A stretch of DNA of 64,000 bases from NCBI GenBank assembly GCA_030827365.1, contig JAUREO010000002.1, forward strand, positions 10,928-74,927. The letters run 5' to 3'. The DNA is from Poseidonia sp. (GTDB lineage: Archaea; Thermoplasmatota; Poseidoniia; Poseidoniales; Poseidoniaceae). The notes under the pieces were generated by a model. It made no database searches and was not told the DNA's origin. It saw only the letters and a list, made by a program, of their open reading frames with translations. Below are positions 3,368 through 37,859 of the stretch, one piece after another. A program made the translations under genes and the position numbers. Numbering within the stretch: position 1 is the first letter of the stretch; every line of letters starts with the position of its first letter.

Positions 3368-3997
3368 TTGGGATTTCTCATGGGTAACAAAAAGGCAACT
3401 GATGTCTTTTCAGATTGGGCAGCCATAGGCAAAGATGAGGGAATGGAACAAGGTCATAGTCCTTCAGTGAACAAAATGATTGATATGGCTCTTCCTTTGA
3501 TGAAGCCAAATTTTACCTTCATCGATATTGGTTGCGGAAATGGTTGGGTTGTTCGAAAATTTCAATCCAATGCTCAGTGTTCGAAGGCCATTGGCATCGA
3601 CGGAGCAAAAAATATGATTGATAAAGCCAAAAACATTGACCCAGAAGGTCATTATGTACACGCCCAATTGCCTCAGTGGTCCCCCAATGAGAATTTTGAC
3701 CTTGCCATGAGTATGGAATTCATGTATTATCTCCATCAACCACAAGAATTTCTTACAACGGTTTTTCGTGATTGGCTCAATTCAAACGGCTGGCTTGTTT
3801 TTGGTATCGACCACTACCTTGAAAACGAATCAAGCCACACTTGGCCAAAAAAATTAGGCGTACACATGACAACTTTGAGTGAACAAGATTGGAAAAATTG
3901 CTTGGAATCCATTGGTTTTCAACATGTTTCATCGAGCCGAACTGGAGCATCGGATGTATGGGCTGGAACACTTATTGTGATGGGTCAAAAGCCCTAA
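3368..3997 (+). CDS. class I SAM-dependent methyltransferase
   Basis: FIDIGCGNGW glycine-rich SAM-binding motif I. Size about 200 aa. Its 3' end overlaps convergently with the addA-like gene by 26 bp. Confidence 0.65.
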   Translation: MGFLMGNKKATDVFSDWAAIGKDEGMEQGHSPSVNKMIDMALPLMKPNFTFIDIGCGNGWVVRKFQSNAQCSKAIGIDGAKNMIDKAKNIDPEGHYVHAQLPQWSPNENFDLAMSMEFMYYLHQPQEFLTTVFRDWLNSNGWLVFGIDHYLENESSHTWPKKLGVHMTTLSEQDWKNCLESIGFQHVSSSRTGASDVWAGTLIVMGQKP

Positions 3998-6900
3998 GGC
4001 CTAAAGGTTCAGAGACGGGCCCGCAACGACGAATATCACCGATGAAAAATGGACAAGACCGACACTCTTTGTCTGATTCAAGTCGAGGGGGAGCCTCAAG
4101 AGTGTCTGAACTCACAAGCACTGATGCCCGCCAAGATAGATGTTCAAGAATATCGGTTTTGCTTTTCGTGTATTGTTCGTCACTAAGTTGTATCATTCGC
4201 CCTGATGCACCAACTAAAATTGAAGGAGGTAGGATTGTTCTACGTTGGCTCGGTTTCTTGTGCTGCTCGATGGATTCGAGGACTATTGAGTACATCGTTA
4301 ACTGCAATCTGTATTGCTCGAGGAGTTCAAGTTCAGCAGGGGTTACTGCTATTGAATTCTCTACGCTCTGCTTGTTTTCTTGTAACGGGTGAGCATCTTC
4401 TTTGTCATGGGAGAATTCATCGAGGCATCCTTTTGTTTTCAAATCAACAACTTGGAGATATCCATTGTTTTGTCCATCACGCAAGGCAATTGCTAAATCT
4501 ATCCGCCCTTCAAAAATCATCGAAATATCATCAATAATCGACATGATTTCTGAGCCATAGGGTGTTTCTTTTGTATGTTCAATACATGGTTGAGAAATCT
4601 TGTGAATGTGTCGGAAAGGCAACTCCGTTCGAACTGCTTCGACTGTGAAACCTTCGCACTCAATGCCTTGCAGGAGGATTCCTAATCGTTGTTGGGTCAT
4701 CAATGTTGAAATTTCTTTGACTCGTTGTTTTGTCGATGAAAACTTAGCGTCAGATGGTGAAATTCCAAATTCCAAAAGAACATCCGCAATGGTTGTTTCA
4801 TCCAGCAACTTACTTTCGTTTTCGATGAACCATTCATTCGATAAAGAGGGTGTGGAGTCATCATGTTTGCATGGATTTGGTAAACCAACTTCGAGCAGAC
4901 GATGCATAATCAGACCAAAATCTGTGGGATTCGGGTATACTGATTGTGATTCATCCCGTTGGCGAGTTCGAATGTTGAGTGGTTCAGTTTGCCATCCCAA
5001 TACATGACTGAGCCAATGCCTCCTTCGACAACGAAATGAACTATCTAGGTCAAAAACCGTTCCTTTGGTTTCAAAGTGCAAGTGTGGAATTTGTCTTGAA
5101 TGATCTTGAACATTGGATTCTTGTTGTAATCTCGAATACATGTCAAGTGTTTGTCGTAAAACCGATGTAGGTTGTGAAGTCGAAAAACAATCAGGGTGAT
5201 GATAGACCTGTAATGTTTGAAGAGTTGATTCTCGAAATGTCGATTGAATGAACAATTGAGCAGGATTGATGAATAAAGGCGATTCATCGACTGGGGCCAA
5301 AACCTCCGCCTCGAGATCGCCTTCGAGCAGCCAAGGGGAATCAGGATTGCCTCCATATTTTGCAACCTGTCGCATGGCATCAATCAACATATTTCCAAAG
5401 GAACGGACACTCGTGCTACGTTTAATTTTGAACTTTTGGCTTTCTTCATCGTACTCACTCGAGGAAGGTGAGCCAACCAAAATCAACCGCTCTTCGGCTC
5501 TTGTGAGTGCAACATAAAGTTGTCTTCGTCGTTCTGCGCGACCTTGTGCATCTTCAATTGCTTTCGTAAATTCCCAAAGCCCATCTTGAGGCCGTTCGTG
5601 GTCAGTCCATGGTTGAATTCGTCCAGCAACAATTTGTGGAGTCACGAGTACATTGTCACGTACAGATTGGGATGCATCTTGTTGCCCAGCACCAAACATA
5701 CCTGCTACGATGACAACTTTTGCCTGCAAACCTTTTGCCTTGTGGAGCGTCATAATTTGAACTGCGTTTCCAGATGAAGATGATTCAGCCGGTGGCCCAT
5801 CTTTACCTAATGCCTTCAATGAACGTATATGCCTTTGAGTTGCAAGGATGTTGTATCCAAAATTGGCTAATGTATCATTGAGCAACGTACACCACGCTTC
5901 AACATGATTTCGCTCAGACTCATTGGAATGGACGACAAGGAGGTCGGAATAATCCAAAAGATATGTGAAAATATCACTAAATCGCCCTTGCAATCGAAAT
6001 GAGTTTACATCACTGAATATCTTTTGAATCGATTTAGGAAAAATGTTTGATTCAAAACATGAAAATAATTGTTTATTCAATTCAGATGTGAATAGAGTAT
6101 TGATTTCATCGTCGCTGAGTCCAACGAGTGGCGACCGCAAGACACCGAACAAAGCCCTTCTTGATTCTGGATAGGCAATGAATTCAAGCATTGATAATAA
6201 TGGTTGAATAACGGGTTGGTGAAGTAATGCACCTTGTTTGTCAGAGACTGCTGGAATCCCACGATTGGAGAGTCGTTGAATCAAATCTGGAACATGTGTT
6301 CTTGCGTGAAAGAGAATCATAATATCTCGTGGTTGATATTCACATCGGTCTCCTATCTCTATCCAAATTTGATTCTCAGTATCCCATATCCTCGTATTTT
6401 GGCCAGATAGTAGAGACGCAACTCTTTGGGCAATGAGCTCATTTTCAAGTTGTTTGAGAGATGAACGAGAATCAAGAAATGGGTCAAAGCTGTCATTCAT
6501 ATCGATGCTTGCTGGTTCAGTTTGTGTTTGAATTGGAATGAGCCATTCAAGGTATCCGCCGTCATCCTCTCTTCCAGGACGCAAACGCTGGGCGTCAGCA
6601 TACCAATTTCCAACGATGGTTTCGTGTCGGGGTGAAAAAACATCATCAAACACATCATTCATGAATTCAAGCAAATGGGAACGTGTTCGATAATTGGTTG
6701 TTAAATCGATATGGCCTTCCCTCCGCCTTTGGACTCGCTCAAGGTCGGTCATGAAACTGCCTTCTTCATCATCTCTTGCAGCAACATGCACATAGGAAAA
6801 AGGTGCACTTTTTTTGCCATCGGAGTGTTTGTTTGTAAACGCCGTTCCTGATGCTCCATCGCCCACGGGCCTCGGATCTCTTCCATGGTCTTGTCTACGA

Positions 6901-8012
6901 ATTTCTGAAAAGCGTTCATCATCTTCTTCCATTCGATTAGCTTCTCGAATTTGTTCGACCATTGTTCTCATCACAGAAACTTCTGCTTGCCGAAATCGGT
7001 AGATGCTTTGTTTCATATCCCCGACAATACAAATGGTGGGCTCCCAATATCCAAGTGGTCCTTTGACCTCGTCTGTAGTTCGAGTACGGCGACCCCACAA
7101 ACGAGCTAACAACCTTGCATGACTCGGATTTGTATCCTGGTATTCATCGATGATGAATGCTCTAAATTGTCGTCGAAGTGTTTGGAGGATTCGGTATCGA
7201 TATTGTAGGTCTTTTCTACAATCTTCATTGTCGTGCAAGATTGTCATAGCCCTTGCAATGTGCATGTCAGTCCAGGGTTCAGAAGTCATTGAATCAAGAG
7301 CATCGACAGCCTCTCTCGGATAGATGTGGCGGCACATATCTGGGCAACGTGAAAGCAAGACGTCTGCGGAAAATCGTAAGACATCATCAAAATCATTGAA
7401 ACCATCCATGGCCTTTCGATGTGAATGAATTTGTTGCGTTCCTTTGTGAACAAAGAACAAATCTCGTAAAACATCCATCTGGAGTTCTTCACTTACATAG
7501 TGACCGAATCCTTGATGCTGATGAGGTATGTCTACATTCAATCCGTACAAATACGAAGATACTCCTGCAGGCATGAATGCATAACCATCTTCCGGTTGAA
7601 GAGTGAAAACACTTTTCGCCAGCAATAAAAAAATTGACGATTCTCGATCGAGCAAGTGCTTTTTAATGAGGTCAGATAAATCTGCCCCATCATCGAAAAC
7701 CTGTTTTTTGAGATCTTTATCGGTAAATCCCGATTCGCCTCTTTTAAAGAGGCCTGCCTGCCAGTCATCGCTCGGAAGCGTACCTCGAGGGAAGAATGTC
7801 GGTGTTTCACCTTCTTTAAGACTTGACAGGCTTGCAATGGATAAACACGCTCGCCAAATCCATCGAAGTTTAGCTAGCGGTTCTTTTTCAGGAGGATGTT
7901 CAACCAAAATATATGAGGTGATGCATCCGACTTTGAGTAAATGCCTGACCAACAGGAATGCACTGTGCAGTGTATCCCCTAAAATGGTCAACCCATTTGG
8001 TGATACGAACAA
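3972..8012 (-). CDS. AddA/RecB-like helicase-nuclease, C-terminal portion (UvrD motifs Ic-VI plus Fe-S PD-(D/E)xK nuclease); frameshifted relative to the 7900..8880 ORF
   Basis: UvrD-family motifs: Ic DTLHSAFLLVR, II IIDEYQDTN, III IVGDMKQSIYRFRQAE, V IMTLHKAKGLQAKVV, VI LYVALTRAEERLILVG. C-terminal nuclease motifs: GRIDLAIAL...VVDLKTKG, QLTMYSIVL and Cys cluster CRSCPFFIGDIRRC. The track start is a TTG. Confidence 0.7.
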   Translation of the reverse strand: MFVSPNGLTILGDTLHSAFLLVRHLLKVGCITSYILVEHPPEKEPLAKLRWIWRACLSIASLSSLKEGETPTFFPRGTLPSDDWQAGLFKRGESGFTDKDLKKQVFDDGADLSDLIKKHLLDRESSIFLLLAKSVFTLQPEDGYAFMPAGVSSYLYGLNVDIPHQHQGFGHYVSEELQMDVLRDLFFVHKGTQQIHSHRKAMDGFNDFDDVLRFSADVLLSRCPDMCRHIYPREAVDALDSMTSEPWTDMHIARAMTILHDNEDCRKDLQYRYRILQTLRRQFRAFIIDEYQDTNPSHARLLARLWGRRTRTTDEVKGPLGYWEPTICIVGDMKQSIYRFRQAEVSVMRTMVEQIREANRMEEDDERFSEIRRQDHGRDPRPVGDGASGTAFTNKHSDGKKSAPFSYVHVAARDDEEGSFMTDLERVQRRREGHIDLTTNYRTRSHLLEFMNDVFDDVFSPRHETIVGNWYADAQRLRPGREDDGGYLEWLIPIQTQTEPASIDMNDSFDPFLDSRSSLKQLENELIAQRVASLLSGQNTRIWDTENQIWIEIGDRCEYQPRDIMILFHARTHVPDLIQRLSNRGIPAVSDKQGALLHQPVIQPLLSMLEFIAYPESRRALFGVLRSPLVGLSDDEINTLFTSELNKQLFSCFESNIFPKSIQKIFSDVNSFRLQGRFSDIFTYLLDYSDLLVVHSNESERNHVEAWCTLLNDTLANFGYNILATQRHIRSLKALGKDGPPAESSSSGNAVQIMTLHKAKGLQAKVVIVAGMFGAGQQDASQSVRDNVLVTPQIVAGRIQPWTDHERPQDGLWEFTKAIEDAQGRAERRRQLYVALTRAEERLILVGSPSSSEYDEESQKFKIKRSTSVRSFGNMLIDAMRQVAKYGGNPDSPWLLEGDLEAEVLAPVDESPLFINPAQLFIQSTFRESTLQTLQVYHHPDCFSTSQPTSVLRQTLDMYSRLQQESNVQDHSRQIPHLHFETKGTVFDLDSSFRCRRRHWLSHVLGWQTEPLNIRTRQRDESQSVYPNPTDFGLIMHRLLEVGLPNPCKHDDSTPSLSNEWFIENESKLLDETTIADVLLEFGISPSDAKFSSTKQRVKEISTLMTQQRLGILLQGIECEGFTVEAVRTELPFRHIHKISQPCIEHTKETPYGSEIMSIIDDISMIFEGRIDLAIALRDGQNNGYLQVVDLKTKGCLDEFSHDKEDAHPLQENKQSVENSIAVTPAELELLEQYRLQLTMYSIVLESIEQHKKPSQRRTILPPSILVGASGRMIQLSDEQYTKSKTDILEHLSWRASVLVSSDTLEAPPRLESDKECRSCPFFIGDIRRCGPVSEPLGLRAFDPSQ

Positions 8013-8880
8013 ATAAGGTTACAAAAAATCTGTCAAGGTCTTCTTCATCAATCGTATCTAACATGATATCGTAGAGAAGTTCAACCGGCCCAGCATCATG
8101 TCCATTCCATTCAATATTCTGTTGTTGGGCTCGCCTGAGTAAATTTCGATGCGCTTCTTCTACAAACATCGATTTCGACATCAATCCTTGAATAACAACC
8201 TCTGCATTGGATTGTCCTCCCAAACGAATTGCGAGTCTATCTCTTGCTCCGAGAAATTCTTGTGGATTTTCGAGCAAACCAGCATTCAATGCATCATCAA
8301 CATGCCTTAGTCGCCAAACGCTACTCAACGTGTCTTGAATGAGAATTTTTGACATTTCTTCTGAAATTTGCTCTGATGGTGGAGTCGTAGCAACAATGTC
8401 AAGGTACGGTTGAATAATTTGATTTAGGAAACTGTCGATGGTCGAAATAGGTGCATTGTCAAGTTGTGAAAGCAACATTTCAACGTCCCCGCTCTGTTGA
8501 ATTCTCGGGTCGAACACACCATCGTCCTCATCTGAGGATGAAGTATCTCGTAAGAGCGACAACGCATCACGAATGCGGGCTTTCAATTCTGCCGCAGCTT
8601 TTCTTGTAAATGTGATTGCGACAACTTCTGAAGGAAGCAATCCGGGCCATTCTTCGACTGAGGTTCTCAATTTAGGCAGAGATGTCAACGAACTCGGAGC
8701 AATTTTGTTATCTCGTGGGCCAATTGGTGTAACGAGTGTGGAGCGTTGAAATGTGGATAAAAGATGTTGAATATATCGTTGGGCCATCACTGTGGTTTTG
8801 CCAGTACCTGCACCAGCATCAAGTGCAATGTGTTTGTCAACATCAAGACCAAGTCGTTGGCTATTGTTAAAATTGGTCAA
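7900..8880 (-). CDS. AddA/RecB-like helicase N-terminal portion (Walker A and motif Ia); 5' fragment of the frameshifted gene
   Basis: Walker A DAGAGTGKTTV and motif Ia VVAITFTRKAAAEL. The ORF ends at 7900. The downstream ORF in another frame carries motif Ic from about 7979, overlapping this ORF by 113 bp. Confidence 0.65.
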   Translation of the reverse strand: MTNFNNSQRLGLDVDKHIALDAGAGTGKTTVMAQRYIQHLLSTFQRSTLVTPIGPRDNKIAPSSLTSLPKLRTSVEEWPGLLPSEVVAITFTRKAAAELKARIRDALSLLRDTSSSDEDDGVFDPRIQQSGDVEMLLSQLDNAPISTIDSFLNQIIQPYLDIVATTPPSEQISEEMSKILIQDTLSSVWRLRHVDDALNAGLLENPQEFLGARDRLAIRLGGQSNAEVVIQGLMSKSMFVEEAHRNLLRRAQQQNIEWNGHDAGPVELLYDIMLDTIDEEDLDRFFVTLFVRITKWVDHFRGYTAQCIPVGQAFTQSRMHHLIYFG

Positions 8881-11800
8881 TCCATTTCACCTCCTGCAAG
8901 GTCAAAAAGAGTGCAAATATTATTGATTGGGCAATATGAACAATATGAGCCTGGAGTTGGATTGACGTGCCCTTGTGCGGCGGTTTGAAGCACTCTCAAG
9001 GCAGTTTGAATTCTCTCCTTCATCCACATTCGGAATGGTGTCATGGTTCGCTCTTCAAGTGTTGATATAGGATAGAACTTATTCAAAATCTGAGTTACTC
9101 TGCCAATACCTGCAAGAGACACATTCGAAGGGAATGCCGAGCCGTCAATTTCCACATAATGTTCTGACCATTCTCCGACCTCACTAATGCCAACGCCCAC
9201 GACTCTGTCGTTTGGATGAGTGATTTCCCACGCTCGAGCATACAACGCAAGTTGCAATTCCCGCATGAGACCTTTGAAATGTCTCTCTCCCACCTTGTTT
9301 GTTTTCGGACCGTTCACGGTTTTGATATCTCGAATGATGACATACCTTTGTGCTGGTCGAATTCCGTCTGAGTAGTCCATTGGAAATGGTTCAGTAAATT
9401 CTGTTTCGTTGAGAAAACCAATTTCGACCAATGCGTCTTCTAAGACTTCATCGAAAGTGATGAGGTCAACTCTATCGGCAAAACCATTGACACACAAGGA
9501 AACATCATCTTGCGTGATGATATTGACGTATCCAAGGTCATCTTGCGACACCGGCCATTCAACCGCAACCGGAGCAGAAGATGTGAGCGAGTAGGTTTGC
9601 TGTATAAGTTGACCAATGCTACCGCCAAGAGGCAGAAGTAGAGTGCCTTCCAAATGCTCTCGCCACGATTGGGGAGAAGCGCCGATAAGGCTACGACAAC
9701 GATGAACGGAAATGGCGTAATCTTGTTCAAGCCAAGTGACATGTTTTGCAAGATAGGACAAGGCGAGTTCCCACCCGTGTTCAACAGAGGGGATTGCACC
9801 ACAATGAAGTGGAAGTGGGGCGGATTGTTCATCACCATAAGCAACTACTCCATGACGCTCAAGGATATGAGCCAAAATTTCATGAATCATGTCACCTCTT
9901 TTCAATGGGTTGATGTCTTCCTCCAAATCTGATGGCTCATCTTCAAGATTCAAGAATTGTTTTGCCCATCCTTTTCTTGGACATTCTAACCATGCTTGAA
10001 TACGCGATGGTGACCATCGATTACGTTCAAGAGTACTTGTGATGATCCCGCTAAAGGGTTCCATCTCAGGCTGAATGAGGTGGGCAGGTGGCAAAGGGTT
10101 TGGGTCGATATATGGAGTAATACTCCTACTACCTCGAATTCCAAGATGTGGAAACGCTACAATTGCCGTGTCTTCTTTCTCCGCTTGCTTTAGATTCAGA
10201 CCGAATTTCAGGTCTGAAATTGATGTTCGTAAACTTCGAGAGTCCCAGTCCAACACTTCGCCTTTGGCCAAATTCTTCTTTGATGGTTGTCGTAATATTC
10301 GATCTTGATGCAGTTGTCGTTCTATTTGAGGCAAAAATGATTCAATGCTATTGAGTGGCTGTGAAGGTTCAAGGCCATACTTCAACTCTAAACCAAGATT
10401 CTGTCGAATGTTTCGTTGACGGATTCCATTCTTTTGGATGACATATCGTCCGTGATCTTGTCGAATGTGAAGGGGGCGGGGTGTTATCCAAGTCAATTTC
10501 TTTTTTTCATCATACCATTGCCCCCAATACGACGATGTGTCGGATTCAGTACCCAACTCCATCCATTCAAATGGAGTGGTGAGTTCAGACATTCCAGAAT
10601 GGCCAAGTTTAGTAAACCATTCTGAAAGTGGGGCGGAAGGTTCTCCACCTTCTTCCAAGCTTGTGTCAAAAATGACTACTTGGGGTGAGCAATTGAGCAG
10701 ATGACGCAACTGATGTCGTCCTTGCCTTATTCTTTGGTCGTTTGAGAAAAATCCCAACTCTTGCTTTGAATATTCATCTAACCAAGGTATTACAGGCTGA
10801 CGCATTGACCATGATTCCAAATCCAGATGGGTTAAAATCAGGAAGTCACACTCAAGCCCAAAGGCTTGGTCCGGTTGTAGCACACGAATTTTATTTGAAT
10901 TACTTGGCGAACCGGTCGTCTTTACGTGTGAGCAAATGTGAGTGAGTCGTTCAAAAAACCAATGAATTCCAAAATTATTGAGCGAGGATTGAGGAATGGT
11001 TTTTTCCAACTCTCGAACATTTGAAATCAATTTTTCTAAGCCTTGTATTTCTTGATGATGTTCAACTTGAGAGGAAAGAAGTCGACTCCAATCTATTTTG
11101 CATAAAAATTCTTCAAACCATGCAAAAACGTGAGGCGGGCTTTCAGGTAGTGGAAGTTGAGCAAGGGTAGCCGCCCCTTCAATATCAAGTTGGGCAATGA
11201 AATTATCCTCTGGGGATAACAATGGCCCCATGAGTCTTGCAAACGCAGCAAGTGCCCATTGTGTTTCTTCGATTTCCTTAGCGGTGATGACCTCATATTG
11301 ATTCTCTATGGGTTGCATTCTCTGCAGATTGGTTCGCCAACGAGCAAGGGCTCCAGGGCCACCAAGGAGGTGATGAATTGAGGAGCATTTCTCCAAGACA
11401 TGTTGGTGCAAACATGGACGCCAGTTGCTCACAGTGGGGTGCCTCAATTCAGGAAATATGTCGTCAAGAAGTGTGAGCGACCCTGAATGAAGTAGTCTCG
11501 AGATGTTGGCAAATGACCAAGCATGCACACCATAACCAATCCTTGCAATGCCTAATAATTGCTGTACGTGTGGTGTGTAGTGAAGTGAGATGCCTGGTTT
11601 ATCCAAATCAATTCCGCTCGGAGAAAGATGTTGTTGCCATAATGTTTGATGTTGATCACCGCAAGGATCGATGATAATGATTTCACCCTCGTGCTGTTGA
11701 AGATATTCAGCAACACATTGGCCGACCGACTCAAAAATATCCTTTTTATCTGATAGAAGCACACGCACGAATTTGCTCTCCCGACTTTTTCCAACCGATG

Positions 11801-12590
11801 TTTGCCAACCCGATTCATTTTGCTTTGGACGCTCTATGGCATGAAGGCCAAAGGGCAATGTTTCTTGTTCATCGTATGCTTGGTCAACAAGATATCGTCC
11901 GTGAAAACCAAGTCGAAACGACCCCTCTGCTATGAGTTGATGAACTGGAACCCATTCTGCTAGGTGCTGGAGAATGCTCGCCTGCATTGGGGTATAATCG
12001 GGTGGCTGGTTAAGGATGATGATACCGTCAATCAATTCTAAATGGAATGGTTTGCTCTTGAATTTTTTCAATGCTTGAAGAACATGAAGTTCAAGGAAGA
12101 AGGCGAATGTTCGCTGCATTTGTGATTCAAGAGATTGTAATTCAGTCACAATGTCATCAAATCCAGGATTTTCGCTCCAATTCCATGGCTGCTCACCTCG
12201 AAGAAGCACCTTGAGCGTTGATAGAATTCGTTGTGTCTTCGAAAACGACCAAGGATGTGCTCCACTGTGGAGAAGTGGGAATGCCAACTCTGATGCTCTA
12301 CCTTCAAGAAACGAATGAATGGATTGCAAGGTTGCAATGTCAAGTTCAATCACCGATGGCAACCTGAGATCGCTTGCCAATTGACGTAAGAGTCCACTGT
12401 AGGTCACATGATTACTTGGGTGAACAATTGAGCTTTCCCGATTCAATTGGTTCACGAATTGGTGTCGATGTTCACTCGTCGGATGTATGATGAGGACCCG
12501 TTCAAGTTCTCCGTTGAGCAGGGATTGTTTCAACCAGTGAGGGGCACCACGGCCTAACTCAACTGGTTCTGATGTAATCATTCTCTTCAC
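8877..12590 (-). CDS. AddB-like partner subunit with C-terminal Cas4/RecB-type Fe-S PD-(D/E)xK nuclease domain
   Basis: 1237 aa. C-terminal WSPSRIQAWLECPRKGW (N-terminal Cys of the cluster), GFADRVDLITFDE, YVIIRDIKT, QLALYARAW and CSYCPINNIC (CxxCx5C). No clear Walker A seen in the N-terminal region. ATGA overlap with the downstream helicase ORF. Confidence 0.6.
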   Translation of the reverse strand: MKRMITSEPVELGRGAPHWLKQSLLNGELERVLIIHPTSEHRHQFVNQLNRESSIVHPSNHVTYSGLLRQLASDLRLPSVIELDIATLQSIHSFLEGRASELAFPLLHSGAHPWSFSKTQRILSTLKVLLRGEQPWNWSENPGFDDIVTELQSLESQMQRTFAFFLELHVLQALKKFKSKPFHLELIDGIIILNQPPDYTPMQASILQHLAEWVPVHQLIAEGSFRLGFHGRYLVDQAYDEQETLPFGLHAIERPKQNESGWQTSVGKSRESKFVRVLLSDKKDIFESVGQCVAEYLQQHEGEIIIIDPCGDQHQTLWQQHLSPSGIDLDKPGISLHYTPHVQQLLGIARIGYGVHAWSFANISRLLHSGSLTLLDDIFPELRHPTVSNWRPCLHQHVLEKCSSIHHLLGGPGALARWRTNLQRMQPIENQYEVITAKEIEETQWALAAFARLMGPLLSPEDNFIAQLDIEGAATLAQLPLPESPPHVFAWFEEFLCKIDWSRLLSSQVEHHQEIQGLEKLISNVRELEKTIPQSSLNNFGIHWFFERLTHICSHVKTTGSPSNSNKIRVLQPDQAFGLECDFLILTHLDLESWSMRQPVIPWLDEYSKQELGFFSNDQRIRQGRHQLRHLLNCSPQVVIFDTSLEEGGEPSAPLSEWFTKLGHSGMSELTTPFEWMELGTESDTSSYWGQWYDEKKKLTWITPRPLHIRQDHGRYVIQKNGIRQRNIRQNLGLELKYGLEPSQPLNSIESFLPQIERQLHQDRILRQPSKKNLAKGEVLDWDSRSLRTSISDLKFGLNLKQAEKEDTAIVAFPHLGIRGSRSITPYIDPNPLPPAHLIQPEMEPFSGIITSTLERNRWSPSRIQAWLECPRKGWAKQFLNLEDEPSDLEEDINPLKRGDMIHEILAHILERHGVVAYGDEQSAPLPLHCGAIPSVEHGWELALSYLAKHVTWLEQDYAISVHRCRSLIGASPQSWREHLEGTLLLPLGGSIGQLIQQTYSLTSSAPVAVEWPVSQDDLGYVNIITQDDVSLCVNGFADRVDLITFDEVLEDALVEIGFLNETEFTEPFPMDYSDGIRPAQRYVIIRDIKTVNGPKTNKVGERHFKGLMRELQLALYARAWEITHPNDRVVGVGISEVGEWSEHYVEIDGSAFPSNVSLAGIGRVTQILNKFYPISTLEERTMTPFRMWMKERIQTALRVLQTAAQGHVNPTPGSYCSYCPINNICTLFDLAGGEMD

Positions 12591-12862
12591 CGTTTTCCTT
12601 GTCTTGAGTTACCGTTTGCAAGCCTTTATGAACATTGAGTGCTAAGTTTCTCTGTCCGGTGAACGAAGTTGATTCGGGGGCATTTAAATTTCAAAAATGT
12701 GCCCAAATATCTTATCTTTCATGGGTAATGTTAATTAACTGGTTATGGTTGAATTCAATTTCCGTGCGGCAAAAACTGACCATTTGTGCAAATTAAAGAG
12801 CCAAATAACATCATGAATGAGATTCATGTTTTGCGTGTGGAAAGTCAAGTGAAGTGAAAGAA

Positions 12863-14050
12863 ATGAGCGAAAAATGTAGTGAATGCGGGAGTGAGAACTT
12901 CCGAACAGATGATGAGAAAGCAGAATGTGTTTGCGAAAACTGTGGTTTTGTGATGCCAGCACCACAAAACAACGAGATGAATAATTCCTCAAATTTGTAT
13001 GGGGAACAACGAACCCATGAACGCGTAACATCAAGGGCGGACCTCGGAGGCACCTATCAGCGTACAAGAAGTCAATTTGACCACGCAGGTCAAAGAATCA
13101 ACCCCGCAATTCGACGAAGTTTGAATTATGGTAGCCAACGTACTCAGGAACGAGAACGAAATCCACAGCTTCGAGAAGTGAAAGAAGCCGTCACATACCT
13201 TGTTGGGGAAGATGCAATGTTGTCAATCGAACGAATTATTGATGCATGTATTCAACCTTATAGCGAGGAGGATGATGCAAAGATTCGCGCTCTTGAACAG
13301 TCTCGTCGCAAAGACAAAAACCTGAAGAATGTCGCTCAAAGTGTCAATCGTATCTCAGATGACTTCTTTTCAAAACGAGGTGACGAAAATCGTTCAACAG
13401 CAGGGCCCCTAAACAACTACTTACTCGCCATGGCCATTCTGGAGTGGGCCTCAAATCTAGGACTTATTCAACGTGTTCAACTCGATGGTCAACGTGAGTC
13501 CTTTGGTCTCCCAGAGGATTTGGTCAACAAGGCCAAACAAATCGTCGACAAGTGTTTGAAGGCCCAGATGCGACATGGCCTACGATGCAGTGGACTTCGT
13601 TTCATTGCTGACAGACATAACAAAGACCTAGTGGTCGCCAACCGTGATGATGACTTCACCGTTGCTTTGAAGATGCTCATCGAAGCATTATCGGACCACG
13701 GTATAGACGATGATATCCTTGAAAGCATGAACTATGACATCGAACAACGCATGAACATTCTCCAAGAAGCTTCACTCTATGGTCCATTGACCAATCATCC
13801 AGCCAAGAAAATCATGGCAATGCTAGTGTGCGTCTCCCTTGAGGCTCATGTTGGAAGCCACCGTAACCTCACACTCATTGCTGAGGAGGTATCCATGACT
13901 GCACAAGGCCTTACAAACTTCATTCGTATGGTTCGTGAGGATCGATCTTTATTGCCAATTGCGTATCTTGTTGCTGTTCTCGCACAACGAATTGCATCAT
14001 TAAACAACAACACAACAAATGATGATGCTGACATTTCTGAAGAAAAATAG
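12863..14050 (+). CDS. TFIIB-type zinc-ribbon protein, divergent TFB-like (no recognisable B-reader or cyclin signature)
   Basis: N-terminus MSEKCSECGSENFRTDDEKAECVCENCGFV matches the TFB/TFIIB Zn-ribbon CxxC-x15-17-CxxC. The rest is long and divergent. Track start is a GTG at 12854; I take the ATG at 12863. Confidence 0.4.
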   Translation: MSEKCSECGSENFRTDDEKAECVCENCGFVMPAPQNNEMNNSSNLYGEQRTHERVTSRADLGGTYQRTRSQFDHAGQRINPAIRRSLNYGSQRTQERERNPQLREVKEAVTYLVGEDAMLSIERIIDACIQPYSEEDDAKIRALEQSRRKDKNLKNVAQSVNRISDDFFSKRGDENRSTAGPLNNYLLAMAILEWASNLGLIQRVQLDGQRESFGLPEDLVNKAKQIVDKCLKAQMRHGLRCSGLRFIADRHNKDLVVANRDDDFTVALKMLIEALSDHGIDDDILESMNYDIEQRMNILQEASLYGPLTNHPAKKIMAMLVCVSLEAHVGSHRNLTLIAEEVSMTAQGLTNFIRMVREDRSLLPIAYLVAVLAQRIASLNNNTTNDDADISEEK

Positions 14051-14071
14051 GGTAAAAGTCAAACCACAGGT

Positions 14072-14980
14072 GTGAATCGAAGATTCATGCGAAGATGGCA
14101 AGTTGTTGCTCTCGGACTGATGCTCCTCATCGTTGTCCCTTCAAATACGGCCGCTCCTGTTGAAGAATTGGATGTTGGTTTCATCGTCGGTGGTCAATGG
14201 ACCAACGCCTCAAATTCATCAACTGCATCCGATTATTTTGTGGACTTACCCGCGCTGGTCGAAGATTACACGGCAACTTGGTGTACCAATTGTGTCGATG
14301 TTGAGCATGCATTAAATGAAATCCCTTCTCGATATCTTCAACAATACCATTTTCACAGAGCGATTGGAGAAACAGAAGACCCGTTTGGTTCTGTAGTTCT
14401 TGATGAGCGGTGGGAAGACCGTTACGGTCTTCGAATCCCGCCAACAGTTGTATTCAATGGATACCTCAAGAAAATCGGTAGTGTTGCCGATGGAGAATCA
14501 TTGAAGGACGATTATGATGAGTTAACCAATTCAACACCCCCTATGGATGAAGGGTCGACACAATTTGTCTGGACACCGGCAGGTGAATCAGGAATCGCCG
14601 CCTGGAATGTCGACATAAGTTCAAGTGTTCTTGCAAATTATTCCCTCGATGTTCAAGTTTGGTTTGTCGAAAGCGGGGCCACATTTGAAGAAGGGTCGAA
14701 TCAACTTGGATATTACCCTCATATCGTACGAGAAATTCATTCGTTAGGAAATGCTACAAATGGCACAGAAAATTTACCCATTCCAGTTGCGTTTGACGGT
14801 GATGATGTTGAAGTTCATTTGATGTACGAGTTCAAACCTATTGTTCTTGAAGTGTGTTGTGATGAACCGATAATTTCTGATGAAGATTCTACGGACAATC
14901 CATTGCCGTATCTCGGCCTCATCGAGATTTTTGCCATCATTGCCATCGTTGTGGCGCTAAAGTCTAAGCGGCTATTGTAA
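14072..14980 (+). CDS. secreted, C-terminally membrane-anchored thioredoxin-fold protein (WCxxC)
   Basis: Signal peptide-like N-terminus (VVALGLMLLIVVPSNTAAP). WCTNC redox motif. N-glycosylation-type NxS/T sequons. C-terminal hydrophobic anchor IEIFAIIAIVVALKSKRLL. Confidence 0.5.
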   Translation: MNRRFMRRWQVVALGLMLLIVVPSNTAAPVEELDVGFIVGGQWTNASNSSTASDYFVDLPALVEDYTATWCTNCVDVEHALNEIPSRYLQQYHFHRAIGETEDPFGSVVLDERWEDRYGLRIPPTVVFNGYLKKIGSVADGESLKDDYDELTNSTPPMDEGSTQFVWTPAGESGIAAWNVDISSSVLANYSLDVQVWFVESGATFEEGSNQLGYYPHIVREIHSLGNATNGTENLPIPVAFDGDDVEVHLMYEFKPIVLEVCCDEPIISDEDSTDNPLPYLGLIEIFAIIAIVVALKSKRLL

Positions 14981-15020: not shown

Positions 15021-17405
15021 TCACAAATCTTCAAATTGAATCCGGTGTCGTTGACCTTTAGGATTGTCTCTCAAATCTTCATGCAATTGCCACCGTCCTC
15101 TTTCGGCCTGAAGTGGCACATTTTCACGGTCGATGTAATTCCACCAACGGGGCGGTGCTCTTTCAGCACCTTGACGTTGTTGCAGTACATTCAACAGTTT
15201 GGCAATTTCAATTCTTGCGTCGGTACGATGTGGATGGCGCCTGATCATTGTAATGTTTTGTCCTTCATCGACTAAGAGTTCATATCCGAGCAGTTCAGCC
15301 ATTTTTTGGATGAAATTTCGTTCATCACCATCACGTATGGTGACTTTCAATTCAAAGTGTTGAAACCCTACCACTTGAGCATCATCTGTAAAGAACTGAA
15401 GTGTGGAATCGATTGGTTGAATATTCATGCACTCCCAGACTCGTGCAAAGGTTTCACACCATCGTCTTTCTCCATCCCTCACATCTCCACATCCATGCAG
15501 ATATGTTACGCGATTTTGGTCCCGGCCACGGAAAATATCAAATCGATTGTATGGAGGATCACGATGAATTCTCATGTTCCTGATGTATTCATGAATCATA
15601 TGACCTGGTTCAACATTTTCCTTATGTGCTGAATCAATCGATTGGTCGACCAATCTTTTCCAGGCAAGAACTGCTTCTCGATGTGTAAATTCTTCAAGTG
15701 TAGTTCGATGGACGTCCAATGATAAGGTTTCTCGATTCGCGAGTAATCTCCCGTGTTCAACAAATACTCGTTCGCCAAATCTTTCGACATACTCATGTTC
15801 ATCCCTAAATTGGGTCTGACGGGTTTTATCAATTGGTTGAGTTTCTCTTTGGTGAAACCAACGGGTTGTTCCAATTTCACGTTCATTTCTGTGGTGGCCA
15901 TGTACGTAATGGGTATTTTGATGAACGAATTGATCGAAGATTGGACTATCGATGCACTCAAAAAATTCTTTCTTATTTGTAGGTGTGAGAAGCAACGGAG
16001 GTCTCACCACGAGGTGTTGGCGAAGGCTATCTACTTGCTGTGATGAGATAGCATCATTGGTCATACCGAGCACCACAGAACCAATTGTATCTCCAATGGG
16101 CAATCTTCTTTGGCTTGCGCCATTGTGAATACATAATGAACCACTGTAACGTAATGTCGTGCCAGAACAATGAAGTGGACGCAAAACGTATGGTGCTCCG
16201 TGCGCACCATGCCCTAATTTCAATTCATAATAATGTCCAAAATTACCTTTGATGAGAATTCTTGAACGATACACAATTGCATTGTTGTCTGCTGCATTCA
16301 AGCAGCCTTGCAAAAATTGAATGGAAACGCCAAAGGGTGTTTCTTGGATGGGTGTTTCAACTTCATCACTAAACCAGGTGGCCTGAAATGCAGAAAAAAG
16401 TTCTCTGGCTGGATGGTCAACAGGATAGAAGCAAGCTGAAAGCACAAATGCGATATGAAGAGGTTGTTCCAAAACAGAAACCCAGCATGCTGATCCATCT
16501 TTCTTTCGACATCGGATTTTGATTTTATCTTTTGTAAAACGAATTGGATGCACTTGATTTTCGTCTTGGTGGTGTATGTTTGTTTCGAGATTCCATGCGT
16601 TAAACCAGGGCTCTGGAAACAATTGCTCAAGCCCGTCTGGTATGTTACGTATTGCATTTTTATAATGCTCAACGAAATTTTCGTCTCGGAAGTTTCGATA
16701 ATATGAATTGACATCGTAAGCCCATGCTTGAATACCCGAAGATAACTCAGTTCGCTCCATAGAACATGAGATGATACTACCAAGCCACCTCAACATAGCA
16801 TGAAACGATTCTTTTCCTGCTGAAATTGGTCGATGTCTTTGCAAAAATTCGGGATTCATGCTATGCGATAAGGCAGATGATGCAAGGAAAAATTGCTTAA
16901 GGTTCCATCCCATTCGTTGCTCCTGTTGGCATAATATCTTGAAAAGAAGGTGTGTTGGGGTGATTCTTGTCAATCTAAAGTGGTCAATATAGCAATCATC
17001 ACCTTGGATCGATACCACTGAGCCATCGTGAAGTGAAACTCCACGCCTCAACATTTCCTCTTGATGCCTTGTCAATGGCCCATTCGAAAATTTCAATTCA
17101 ATGATGTCCGAAAACTCTTCCTCGCTACATGGGAGTTCTGTAACCGGGTCTCCATGATTCGGGAGTTGAAACCAAGACAAGACATCCATTTCAAGCATTG
17201 GTGAGATTCTTCTCCATCTGGTAGGTGATTGCCTTGCATTGTTCATCAATCGAAGTATCTCGTTTTTAGTGTTCGGGTTAACTTCAATTTTCCACTCGTT
17301 AGTTTTCGATTTTGAACAAAGCGAGGTACATAATTCACAATACTCTTGGTCTTGTTCCCCATTTCGAACAGAACATAATTTACAGAGAATTTCGTCATGA
17401 TTCAT
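15021..17405 (-). CDS. large hypothetical protein with N-terminal Cys4 zinc ribbon and HGHHR motif
   Basis: 794 aa. CKLCSVRNGEQDQEYCELC zinc-ribbon-like start. Internal GHYYELKLGHGAHGAPY and YVHGHHRNEREIG, which resembles the ParB/Srx DGHHR motif. Many His/Cys. No Walker A. Confidence 0.5.
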   Translation of the reverse strand: MNHDEILCKLCSVRNGEQDQEYCELCTSLCSKSKTNEWKIEVNPNTKNEILRLMNNARQSPTRWRRISPMLEMDVLSWFQLPNHGDPVTELPCSEEEFSDIIELKFSNGPLTRHQEEMLRRGVSLHDGSVVSIQGDDCYIDHFRLTRITPTHLLFKILCQQEQRMGWNLKQFFLASSALSHSMNPEFLQRHRPISAGKESFHAMLRWLGSIISCSMERTELSSGIQAWAYDVNSYYRNFRDENFVEHYKNAIRNIPDGLEQLFPEPWFNAWNLETNIHHQDENQVHPIRFTKDKIKIRCRKKDGSACWVSVLEQPLHIAFVLSACFYPVDHPARELFSAFQATWFSDEVETPIQETPFGVSIQFLQGCLNAADNNAIVYRSRILIKGNFGHYYELKLGHGAHGAPYVLRPLHCSGTTLRYSGSLCIHNGASQRRLPIGDTIGSVVLGMTNDAISSQQVDSLRQHLVVRPPLLLTPTNKKEFFECIDSPIFDQFVHQNTHYVHGHHRNEREIGTTRWFHQRETQPIDKTRQTQFRDEHEYVERFGERVFVEHGRLLANRETLSLDVHRTTLEEFTHREAVLAWKRLVDQSIDSAHKENVEPGHMIHEYIRNMRIHRDPPYNRFDIFRGRDQNRVTYLHGCGDVRDGERRWCETFARVWECMNIQPIDSTLQFFTDDAQVVGFQHFELKVTIRDGDERNFIQKMAELLGYELLVDEGQNITMIRRHPHRTDARIEIAKLLNVLQQRQGAERAPPRWWNYIDRENVPLQAERGRWQLHEDLRDNPKGQRHRIQFEDL

Positions 17406-17435
17406 GCATTGTTGAATGCTATGACTCGGTATAAA

Positions 17436-18512: not shown

Positions 18513-18878
18513 TTATAACAATGGTAACTCGCCTGTAATCGCGTCAATGTCGTCTTCGTATGAGGGGCCAATAGCGAGGACGGTGAAACTTCCTTTGGGA
18601 ATTTGAGTGTGGCCGGCGTCAATGGTTTTACTCGTGTGCAGTTTCAATTGGCGGGCTTTTGCTTGAAGTTCGGTCAAGTGTTGTTCATCCACTCCTTTCA
18701 GGCAAACTTTCTTTTGCCCCTGAGCCAACCATGCATCGACCATTTTTGGCGTAGATGAACCAGCAGAAAGCAGAGTTTGCACACTAGCATGGCCGACCTG
18801 TGCAGCAATTTTGCCTTTTTTCATCCCCAAACTATGGTTGATAACAAGAGCGAGTTTGATTGGACGCGCTTCAACCAT
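18513..18878 (-). CDS. pth2: peptidyl-tRNA hydrolase, archaeal PTH2 family (copy 1)
   Basis: KLALVINHSLGMKKGKIAAQVGHASV and C-terminal TVLAIGP match the Pth2 fold. Start set at MVEARPIK. The track extends to 18932. Confidence 0.7.
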   Translation of the reverse strand: MVEARPIKLALVINHSLGMKKGKIAAQVGHASVQTLLSAGSSTPKMVDAWLAQGQKKVCLKGVDEQHLTELQAKARQLKLHTSKTIDAGHTQIPKGSFTVLAIGPSYEDDIDAITGELPLL

Positions 18879-18928
18879 GCCTCCAATTTTGGGAGCCGTT
18901 AATCTGTGCAAGAAGGAGCGAAGGCCCA

Positions 18929-19306
18929 TCAATCCACCCCGTACAACTCAAGTTGAGAAAACAACTCATTAAGTGATGCTTTGTAAGCTGGCCCGACACC
19001 AAGAACGGTGATCGTATTTGGTGGAATTTCAGTTTTTCCAGCATCGCGGACAAGAGCATGGACAAGTCCTGCCTCCTCGCATTTTTCTTTCCAATACATA
19101 ATATCTACATCGTCAATTGCAGAAAGGCAAATTTTTCGAGAACCTGTGTTCCTCCACATTTCAAAAATTTGAGGAATTGACTTTCGTGCTTGAAGTGAAC
19201 AATCAACAGCTGCATGTGCACATTGAACTGCAACCTTACCCATCGACATTTCAAGGTCAGTACGCACGAGAAGTGCCATACTCAATTGGTCATCCGCGGA
19301 CAACAT
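18929..19306 (-). CDS. peptidyl-tRNA hydrolase, archaeal PTH2 family (copy 2, tandem paralog)
   Basis: MALLVRTDLEMSMGKVAVQCAHAAV...TVLGVGP. Same Pth2 architecture, different sequence. Confidence 0.7.
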   Translation of the reverse strand: MLSADDQLSMALLVRTDLEMSMGKVAVQCAHAAVDCSLQARKSIPQIFEMWRNTGSRKICLSAIDDVDIMYWKEKCEEAGLVHALVRDAGKTEIPPNTITVLGVGPAYKASLNELFSQLELYGVD

Positions 19307-36863: not shown

Positions 36864-37859
36864 TCATTGGTCACCTTCATAGCCGCCAATCATCTTAATC
36901 TGTTCTTTAAGTTCGTTAATTTCAATCAATGCATTTTCACAAGGCATCTCGCCCCATCGGTCGGTATTATCGGACTCAAACCATGGATTTGACTCAAACA
37001 ATCGGCAAATGCTTTTCGCAAGCGAGGGATAGATGACTGCGGCTCGAAAAACAAAAAGACGATGATACCAAGATGGATGTTCTTTGATTTCAGATGGACA
37101 CTGGGCAAGAAATTCGACCGTTTGAAACAATTCATCAAATTCTTCCGAATGGGTGAAGTCGTTGGATGTGTCCTCGGAGATCGTGGTCCACCAATCTTGT
37201 CGGGGCTTTTGAAATTCAATTTTGTAGCCCGAAATACAAGGGTTCTGGAAATCTATTCGCCATTTCCAATTGTTTGTACCTTGAATGAGAATTTGGCTTT
37301 TGCCAAAATCAATCTCAGCATCGCATCGGTCGCTAAAAAATTTCTCCAAGACATCGGAAATTGGACTTTTCACATATCCATAAGTTCTCACCAATGCAAT
37401 TCTCAATGGGTGCAATTCCTCATGATGAAAAAAGACGTTGTCATTTAACAGACCTAAGACATAGGAGCACATGAAATCTATACCTGGTTGCATAGAGGTA
37501 TTACCAATTTGTATACACGCCTTGGTTGGTGATTGAACAAGTTGATTCAAGGGGTGGACTTCAACTGGTTCGAACGTTGTTCGAATGAAGGGGTTTCGTA
37601 AGGCATCAAGCCACGATTGCATGTTGATTCGGTAGAGGGCTAAATTTCCTTTGACAATCATCCTCATCTCATCTTGAAAATAAATTCGTTCTGAATTTCG
37701 CTCGATAATGTCCTTAAACAGTTCGAGCGACTTTTCGTAACTAACGACAACGCCTTCAAACTCTTCGAAGATTTCTTGCTTGGCGGTCTTGAACAAAGGA
37801 GTTGTGCTTTCTGCCCCGAACAACATATCGAGAATCGAATCTGACATATTCAAAACCAT
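36864..37859 (-). CDS. hypothetical protein
   Basis: 331 aa ORF with no motif I can assign. Ends 1 nt from the tRNA-Arg 3' end (convergent). Confidence 0.4.
   Translation of the reverse strand: MVLNMSDSILDMLFGAESTTPLFKTAKQEIFEEFEGVVVSYEKSLELFKDIIERNSERIYFQDEMRMIVKGNLALYRINMQSWLDALRNPFIRTTFEPVEVHPLNQLVQSPTKACIQIGNTSMQPGIDFMCSYVLGLLNDNVFFHHEELHPLRIALVRTYGYVKSPISDVLEKFFSDRCDAEIDFGKSQILIQGTNNWKWRIDFQNPCISGYKIEFQKPRQDWWTTISEDTSNDFTHSEEFDELFQTVEFLAQCPSEIKEHPSWYHRLFVFRAAVIYPSLAKSICRLFESNPWFESDNTDRWGEMPCENALIEINELKEQIKMIGGYEGDQ

Follow-up and report, generated by a model that had tools for sequence, protein, structure and literature searches.

A large zinc-ribbon protein family, to date recorded only in Poseidoniales, encoded in a conserved chromosomal gene cluster

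The 64,000-nucleotide stretch of contig JAUREO010000002.1 from Poseidonia sp. analyzed here (the window) carries on its reverse strand, at positions 15021..17405, an ATG-initiated open reading frame (ORF) of 794 amino acids, the product of which is a long member of a zinc-ribbon protein family restricted to Poseidoniales. The predicted protein has a mass of 93 kDa and a pI of 6.4, and GC content across the gene region is 41-47% throughout, with an unremarkable composition. The ratio of nonsynonymous to synonymous substitution rates (dN/dS, or omega) lies at 0.13-0.15, being 0.147 against a 95%-identical orthologue and 0.125 against a 77%-identical one; every folded segment shows an omega of no more than 0.20, and omega is highest in an internal linker (0.26-0.39). 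As judged from these sequence comparisons, the ORF is a real gene under purifying selection. Its exact product has already been deposited as MDA0715108.1, under the name 'hypothetical protein [archaeon]'.

A TATA-box-like TTTATA occurs at 17430..17435 (reverse strand), 25-30 nucleotides upstream of the start codon and immediately adjoining the stop codon of the neighbouring gene ltaE. The same hexamer, or TTATATA, is found at equal distance in the orthologous loci L001-L003 and L005-L007, including L002, the family protein of which is only 29% identical. By its resemblance to the consensus, the element fits an archaeal promoter belonging to the family gene itself, from which a leaderless or short-leader mRNA would be transcribed. 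Also, the deposited gene calls for the orthologues of L001, L005 and L006 (versions of 756, 741 and 725 amino acids) begin at an internal methionine near residue 54 and consequently omit the zinc ribbon, which is encoded upstream of the deposited starts, with a GTG start codon in L001 and L005-L007.

An exhaustive HMMER scan of 1.84 billion representative sequences recovered 131 homologue clusters, of which 74 have E values below 1e-10. A word-indexed search had returned only 11 homologues (29-95% identity) and two further profile searches the same 11, the distant relatives being recovered by the exhaustive scan only. Member names were checked in 20 divergent clusters out of the 131, and all are 'hypothetical protein' entries from Poseidoniaceae, Thalassarchaeaceae, Poseidoniales or marine 'Euryarchaeota/Thermoplasmatota archaeon' metagenome-assembled genomes (MAGs). 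All five GTDB genome matches are Candidatus Poseidoniales MAGs, and genomes carry from one to several paralogues. Judging by the names in these 20 clusters, the family has to date been recorded exclusively in Poseidoniales (Marine Group II archaea).

The protein had initially been described, from the sequence of the window, as an orphan without an assignable family. The second half of this description holds for Pfam, NCBIfam, PADLOC, PHROGs and the PDB; strictly an orphan it is not, given its 131 homologue clusters. In Pfam, the 794-residue protein matches DUF6195 (PF19695) alone and below threshold (residues 654-734, 18.3 bits against a cutoff of 25, E 0.0029). This weak local likeness to the C-terminal domain of the family falls short of the gathering cutoff, is seen in only 1 of the 75 aligned members, and was treated as chance. 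No match was obtained in NCBIfam, PADLOC (E<=1) or PHROGs, and weak PDB sequence matches to SUMO2, EFCAB6 and a nine-heme cytochrome were rejected at E values of 0.2-9. Ten distant relatives sampled from the scan contain no Pfam domain in any case, no recurring Pfam family emerged when the 75 aligned members were scanned singly at E<=0.1, and neither the family consensus in Pfam nor the core consensus in the PDB found a match. A full-text literature search combining Poseidoniales with 'zinc ribbon' found no paper. Taken at the level of sequence and predicted structure, the family could be connected with no described family and with no solved structure, and is new as a protein family, in keeping with the undescribed function originally attributed to it.

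Conservation was counted in an alignment of 75 family members, complemented by a smaller one of 12 sequences. Modelling with AlphaFold on the larger alignment yielded a mean predicted local distance difference test (pLDDT) value of 83 and a predicted template modelling score (pTM) of 0.76; the 12-sequence input gave an unusable model with a pLDDT of 48.8. The protein begins with a four-cysteine segment at residues 8-26 (17328..17384, reverse strand; CKLCSVRNGEQDQEYCELC), with the spacing CxxC-x11-CxxC rather than the x13 previously given for an otherwise correctly recognized ribbon. Among the sequences covering these columns, the four cysteines are kept in 62/63, 59/60, 64/65 and 65/65 cases, that is, in at least 98% at each position, and the segment lies at the extreme N-terminus in nearly all family architectures. 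It is a predicted zinc ribbon conserved family-wide. In the model, residues 1-33 form this ribbon and a helix; pLDDT is 72-91 over residues 1-30, and DSSP assigns isolated bridges only, at residues 7 and 15.

Helices at residues 44-79 lead to an alpha/beta N-domain (residues ~80-185; 16851..17168, reverse strand), modelled at residues ~88-183 with a pLDDT of 89-98. It is marked by W78, present in 72 of 72 sequences, and by the motif RG..L.DG...S...DG, with G122, G128, D141 and P150 conserved. A helical region (residues 185-277) separates it from a beta-rich core at residues ~286-470 (15996..16550, reverse strand), a basic domain with a pI of 9.0 which is common to all architectures: profile positions 273-480 are the match common to relatives of 430, 640 and 800 amino acids. 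The core consists of a beta-hairpin/helix unit (residues 288-343) and a second unit (357-467) with one long helix, five consecutive strands (376-420), an invariant cysteine, and then helices starting at D439 and D451. Its signature, G387-x2-G390-x2-Y393...G400-x-H402-G...C425...P436-x-G438-D439...D451 (16053..16247, reverse strand), accepts tyrosine or tryptophan at position 393. C425, D439 and D451 are each present in 75/75 sequences, G387 in 74/75, G390 in 71/75, G438 in 70/75 and H402 in 66/74.

A variable linker at residues 476-640 (15486..15980, reverse strand) is largely modelled with low confidence, particularly from about residue 500 onwards, with a pLDDT below 50 at residues 502-505, 508-510, 521-538, 550-569 and 600-631, and is the part in which omega reaches its highest values. 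The protein closes with an alpha+beta C-terminal domain at residues 641-745 (modelled at 645-745, pLDDT 82-98) and a PPxWW / RWxLxxDL tail, together encoded at 15024..15485 (reverse strand), in which R648 (57/60), G707 (57/58) and W754 (47/54) stand out. This domain is absent from the short paralogues, which match profile positions ~6-452 only. The absence of a Walker A motif, of a SAM motif (motif I) and of transmembrane segments, reported at the outset, is borne out for the whole protein, the highest Kyte-Doolittle mean over 19 residues being 1.36. A Foldseek search against 350,542 PDB chains returned no match better than E 1.9, and comparison of the N-domain with the core by hhalign self-alignment (probability 0.1) revealed no internal repeat. 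Ideas suggested by motifs and secondary structure, namely a kinase-like Gly-loop, an S4-like domain and a PD-(D/E)xK site, found no profile or fold support.

Two His/Gly-rich strings had been singled out in the preliminary description, and both are present. The first, GHYYELKLGHGAHGAPY at residues 390-406, lies within the conserved core, and the GHYYELK..GAHGAP element that it represents is conserved and belongs to the family core. The second, YVHGHHRNEREIG at residues 500-512, includes HGHHR at residues 502-506 (15888..15902, reverse strand), which had been read as a catalytic motif of the kind found in ParB/sulfiredoxin (Srx)-fold nucleases and NTPases, the protein being proposed as a single-gene antiphage defence nuclease. 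This string, the sole support for that reading, is lineage-specific. Its columns are occupied in 6-9 of the 75 members, of which two keep histidine at 502, 504 and 505, and in the 55%-identical orthologues it is replaced by HPFRG--RN, as seen in the 12-sequence alignment. The tetrapeptide GHHR occurs four times in the six-frame translation of the window, which is within chance. Lack of conservation of HGHHR among homologues had been named beforehand as grounds for abandoning the ParB/Srx assignment, and the assignment is refuted because the motif is not conserved. Also, HGHHR lies in a disordered (pLDDT<50), evolutionarily relaxed linker, none of the 75 members matches ParBc or ParB/Srx models at E<=0.1, nor does the family consensus, and no ParB/Srx structure was retrieved from the PDB by Foldseek. 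The likeness to proteins with Pfam ParBc (PF02195) and their DGHHR/DGQHR-type motif thus amounts to five residues in the window protein and its closest relative only, and differs from these in lying outside any folded domain. A role in defence, for which PADLOC gives no match, fares no better at the level of gene context, since the same housekeeping locus (ltaE...AddB/AddA) harbors orthologues of 22-95% identity in both Poseidoniales families, rather than a variable defence island. Overall, an HGHHR-dependent ParB-like nuclease or NTPase acting against phages is exceedingly improbable.

Short relatives of the family protein occur in several contexts. In loci L018, L023 and L024, a paralogue of 555-580 amino acids comprising ribbon, N-domain and core, without the C-terminal domain, lies immediately upstream of the long one, and in L018 and L024 the two reading frames overlap or nearly abut, a pattern typical of co-expressed subunits. 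The wider neighbourhood of L018 differs from that of the other loci, yet keeps the short and long paralogues together with a convergent zinc-ribbon gene, the alignment of which to the profile of the TFB-like neighbours described below is collinear but weak. In this L018 context (13159-14922), two small ORFs of 79 and 71 amino acids lie on either side of a ThiF/E1-like gene; they have no Pfam match and could encode ubiquitin-like modifiers of the SAMP type. In Thalassarchaeaceae, a short paralogue of 430 amino acids is found at a different place, between an AIR-synthase-like gene and Trm1, near MCM and GatE. The window itself encodes a second, highly diverged, core-only paralogue of 331 amino acids at 36864..37859 (reverse strand), detected by the family HMM at E values of 1.6e-6 to 2e-8 over core positions 338-433. 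It keeps VKGN..YRI, ACIQIG, GID and LLND, and with them the cysteine and aspartate of the core, and has no match in Pfam or NCBIfam. Entries for it from Poseidoniales MAGs bear the name hypothetical protein, and it adjoins a HAD hydrolase gene.

The immediate neighbours had been correctly named as ltaE, upstream (Beta_elim_lyase, E 7e-100), and a thioredoxin-like membrane protein, here termed the WCxxC protein. The accompanying statement that there are no obvious operon partners was too strong, as the gene sits in a conserved cluster. In locus L001, which carries a 55%-identical orthologue, the gene order equals that of the window: GatE, a PQQ-repeat protein, a 218-residue protein, two PTH2 genes, ltaE, the family gene, the WCxxC protein, a TFB-like protein and AddB-like and AddA-like proteins. 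The frame formed by ltaE, the family gene and TFB-like/AddB/AddA is kept in L017 and L022, the members of which are 22-23% identical, as well as in L023 and L024, which hold the most divergent members, and in L025 from Thalassarchaeaceae. Comparison of these sequences shows the family gene to be vertically inherited, as a positional orthologue down to about 22% identity, and the cluster to consist of ltaE, a short tandem paralogue in some lineages, the long paralogue, and genes for the exported WCxxC protein, the TFIIB-ribbon protein and AddB/AddA-like proteins.

The WCxxC gene (14072..14980, forward strand) is convergent with the family gene, downstream of it, and encodes an exported or anchored protein of 302 amino acids with the thioredoxin-like motif ATWCxNC (ATWCTNC in the window) and hydrophobic anchors at both ends. 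Homologues of about 300 amino acids (32-67% identity), confirmed by BLAST and HMM comparison, adjoin the family gene in L001, L002, L017, L022, L023, L024 and L025; the motif is present in 8/8 sequences, and both anchors were detected in 6/8, including that of the window. Next to it in the cluster is a gene for a 398-residue protein (12854..14050, forward strand) with a TFIIB-type N-terminal zinc ribbon, recognized by Pfam Zn_Ribbon_TF (26.3 bits as a single sequence and 38.4 bits as a consensus, against a cutoff of 29) and by PDB entry 1PFT (E 2e-6). Its remaining residues, about 350, match neither a cyclin-fold TFB core nor any other family. These TFB-like neighbours are homologous to one another by BLAST and HMM comparison, adjoin the family gene in L001, L002, L017, L022, L023 and L024, and are weakly recognizable in L018/L020. 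The protein at 12854-14050, kept beside the family gene throughout Poseidoniaceae, is probably a lineage-specific TFB paralogue.

Further along the cluster, an AddB-like protein of 1237 amino acids (8877-12590, reverse strand) ends in a PD-(D/E)XK domain, for which PADLOC reports weak Cas4 matches (E 1.5e-4); these reflect, by sequence, the nuclease domain common to Cas4 and AddB, not a CRISPR system. Together with the AddA-like protein it makes up a helicase-nuclease pair of bacterial type, which is kept across the Poseidoniales loci. In the window, the AddA-like gene (3972-8880, reverse strand) is broken into two pieces, the ORFs at 7900-8880 and 3972-8012, which are in different frames and meet near 7900-8140. 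The single-ORF AddA-like protein of L001 aligns to both frames with overlapping query ranges (residues 1-325 and 257-1274), which suggests either a frameshift with local duplication or an assembly artefact. On the other side of ltaE, two overlapping genes (4 nucleotides) for archaeal peptidyl-tRNA hydrolases (PTH2; 139 and 125 amino acids) occupy 18513-19306 on the reverse strand. The pair also occurs in L001, and in L017 and L022 it is present with other genes in between. Along with GatE and the TFIIB-ribbon protein, the two PTH2 genes identify the window as archaeal DNA.

Regarding function, a tentative proposal, possible rather than probable, is that the family protein is a cytoplasmic zinc-ribbon binding or scaffolding factor with a metal or ligand site, serving a DNA- or transcription-linked housekeeping process. 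Docking to a partner machine or to DNA or RNA would be the task of the zinc ribbon together with the basic core, and the cluster formed by H402, C425, D439 and D451 would bind a metal ion or form a small catalytic or ligand site. The protein may act as a homo-oligomer or, where a short paralogue is encoded next door, as a hetero-oligomer with it, and its role would be tied to the neighbouring TFB-like and AddAB-like genes. This proposal draws on the order-wide cluster with its genuine TFIIB-ribbon neighbour, the basic core, the tandem paralogues and the conserved TATA-like element. Several points weigh against it. The best PDB match noted above ties no domain to a known binding or catalytic fold; nucleic-acid binding is itself a low-confidence proposal; and the protein taken as a whole is slightly acidic. 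The TFB-like gene runs convergently and is not co-transcribed with the family gene, and L025 lacks it at this position. As the cluster also contains unrelated genes (ltaE, Pth2, WCxxC), synteny may represent inherited order without functional linkage, and the invariant cysteine and two aspartates could be purely structural, contributing to core packing and helix N-caps.

The main rival to a binding factor is an enzyme, a hydrolase, peptidase or transferase with an active site at H402/C425/D439/D451, acting on a small-molecule or protein substrate unrelated to DNA, for which the zinc ribbon and other domains would be regulatory or serve in oligomerization. We regard this as conceivable, albeit doubtful. 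C425, D439 and D451 are the sole invariants in 75 sequences of 15-29% identity, glycine-rich loops flank the site, and the signature survives in the otherwise unrecognizable 331-residue paralogue, a pattern typical of active or ligand sites. However, no catalytic family was found by sequence or by Foldseek against the PDB, D439 and D451 each stand at the start of a helix in the model and may serve to cap it, and the order His...Cys without an intervening helix fits neither a papain-like nor a caspase-like fold. A His-Me/HNH-type site, considered on account of the 'CIHNG' following a beta-hairpin, is ruled out because H427 and N428, beside the invariant cysteine, are not conserved. The family protein could also be the cytoplasmic partner of the exported WCxxC neighbour, say in a redox or maturation pathway peculiar to the lineage, a weaker alternative which seems quite unlikely. 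In its favour, the ATWCxNC protein adjoins the family gene in seven independent loci and is co-directional with it in L023-L025, at gaps of 26-76 nucleotides. Yet the two genes are on opposite strands in the window, L001, L002 and L022, the WCxxC gene is absent from the L018 context of short, long and TFB-like genes, and the short paralogue of Marine Group IIb (MGIIb) is located elsewhere, without a WCxxC gene. Moreover, the WCxxC protein is exported and the family protein cytoplasmic, and no membrane component connects the two.

Equally among the weaker alternatives, a domesticated viral or mobile-element origin, with the family derived from or common to viruses of marine archaea, is suggested by the three top matches in BFVD. 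These are the unnamed viral proteins A0A516MG04, A0A516M0H5 and A0A516LSW3, of 416-452 amino acids, close in length to the 430-residue architecture, which align over 390-490 columns with a Foldseek probability of 0.91-0.96. They are the best fold-level matches obtained anywhere and the only ones of high Foldseek probability. Nevertheless, their E values are only 5e-3 to 1e-2, template modelling scores are 0.13-0.24, the root-mean-square deviation is ~17 A, sequence identity is ~10% and none is annotated; homology would be putative. In tblastn, neither the window protein nor either of two divergent members found a match among 50,697 phage genomes, no relative was found in IMG/VR with close-family patterns, no PHROG is matched, and the constant chromosomal position of the gene throughout the order points to a long, vertically inherited presence. 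A viral origin is accordingly held to be very unlikely.

Going beyond the binding or scaffolding factor proposed above, the long and short paralogues might constitute an undescribed Poseidoniales-specific complex of new fold, with a Cys/His/Asp/Asp metal or active site, working with the TFIIB-ribbon protein and a horizontally acquired AddAB-type helicase-nuclease. This extension is improbable as it stands; if true, one of the most abundant groups of archaea in the ocean would have an order-specific supplement to its machinery for DNA repair or transcription. Poseidoniales, which are uncultured, rank among the most abundant archaea of the plankton, and order-wide genes that are absent elsewhere may underlie the distinctness of the group. 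Also, a large, cytoplasmic family under selection, with a confident model and no solved counterpart found, lends itself to structural genomics and to biochemistry in a heterologous host, and a false lead, the ParB-like defence nuclease, has been removed. Novelty is claimed at the level of the family, which can be linked to no described family or solved fold, and does not extend to mechanism. Lineage-specific families without annotation are common in archaea.

Compared with TFIIB/TFB-type proteins, the family shares a four-cysteine ribbon at the start of the protein, and its conserved neighbour has a bona fide TFIIB ribbon. The two ribbons differ, however: alignment of the family to the TFB-like neighbours reaches an hhalign probability of 3.6%, Zn_Ribbon_TF is not matched, and nothing downstream of the family ribbon resembles a cyclin-fold TFB core. 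A closer parallel is offered by the hypothetical protein families catalogued across archaea by Meheust et al. (2022, BMC Biol 20:154, PMC9258230), who list 199 Poseidoniales-specific families in modules 32 and 71 and, in addition, 1,053 lineage-specific families of archaea that are still unannotated. By description, the zinc-ribbon family resembles those of modules 32 and 71 in being Poseidoniales-restricted, order-wide and devoid of Pfam/KEGG annotation. Lineage-specific hypothetical proteins are on average short and often membrane-associated or secreted (PMC9258230). The family described here, in contrast, has a confident structure model without a PDB fold match, and is large (430-850 amino acids), cytoplasmic, multi-domain and represented by paralogues.

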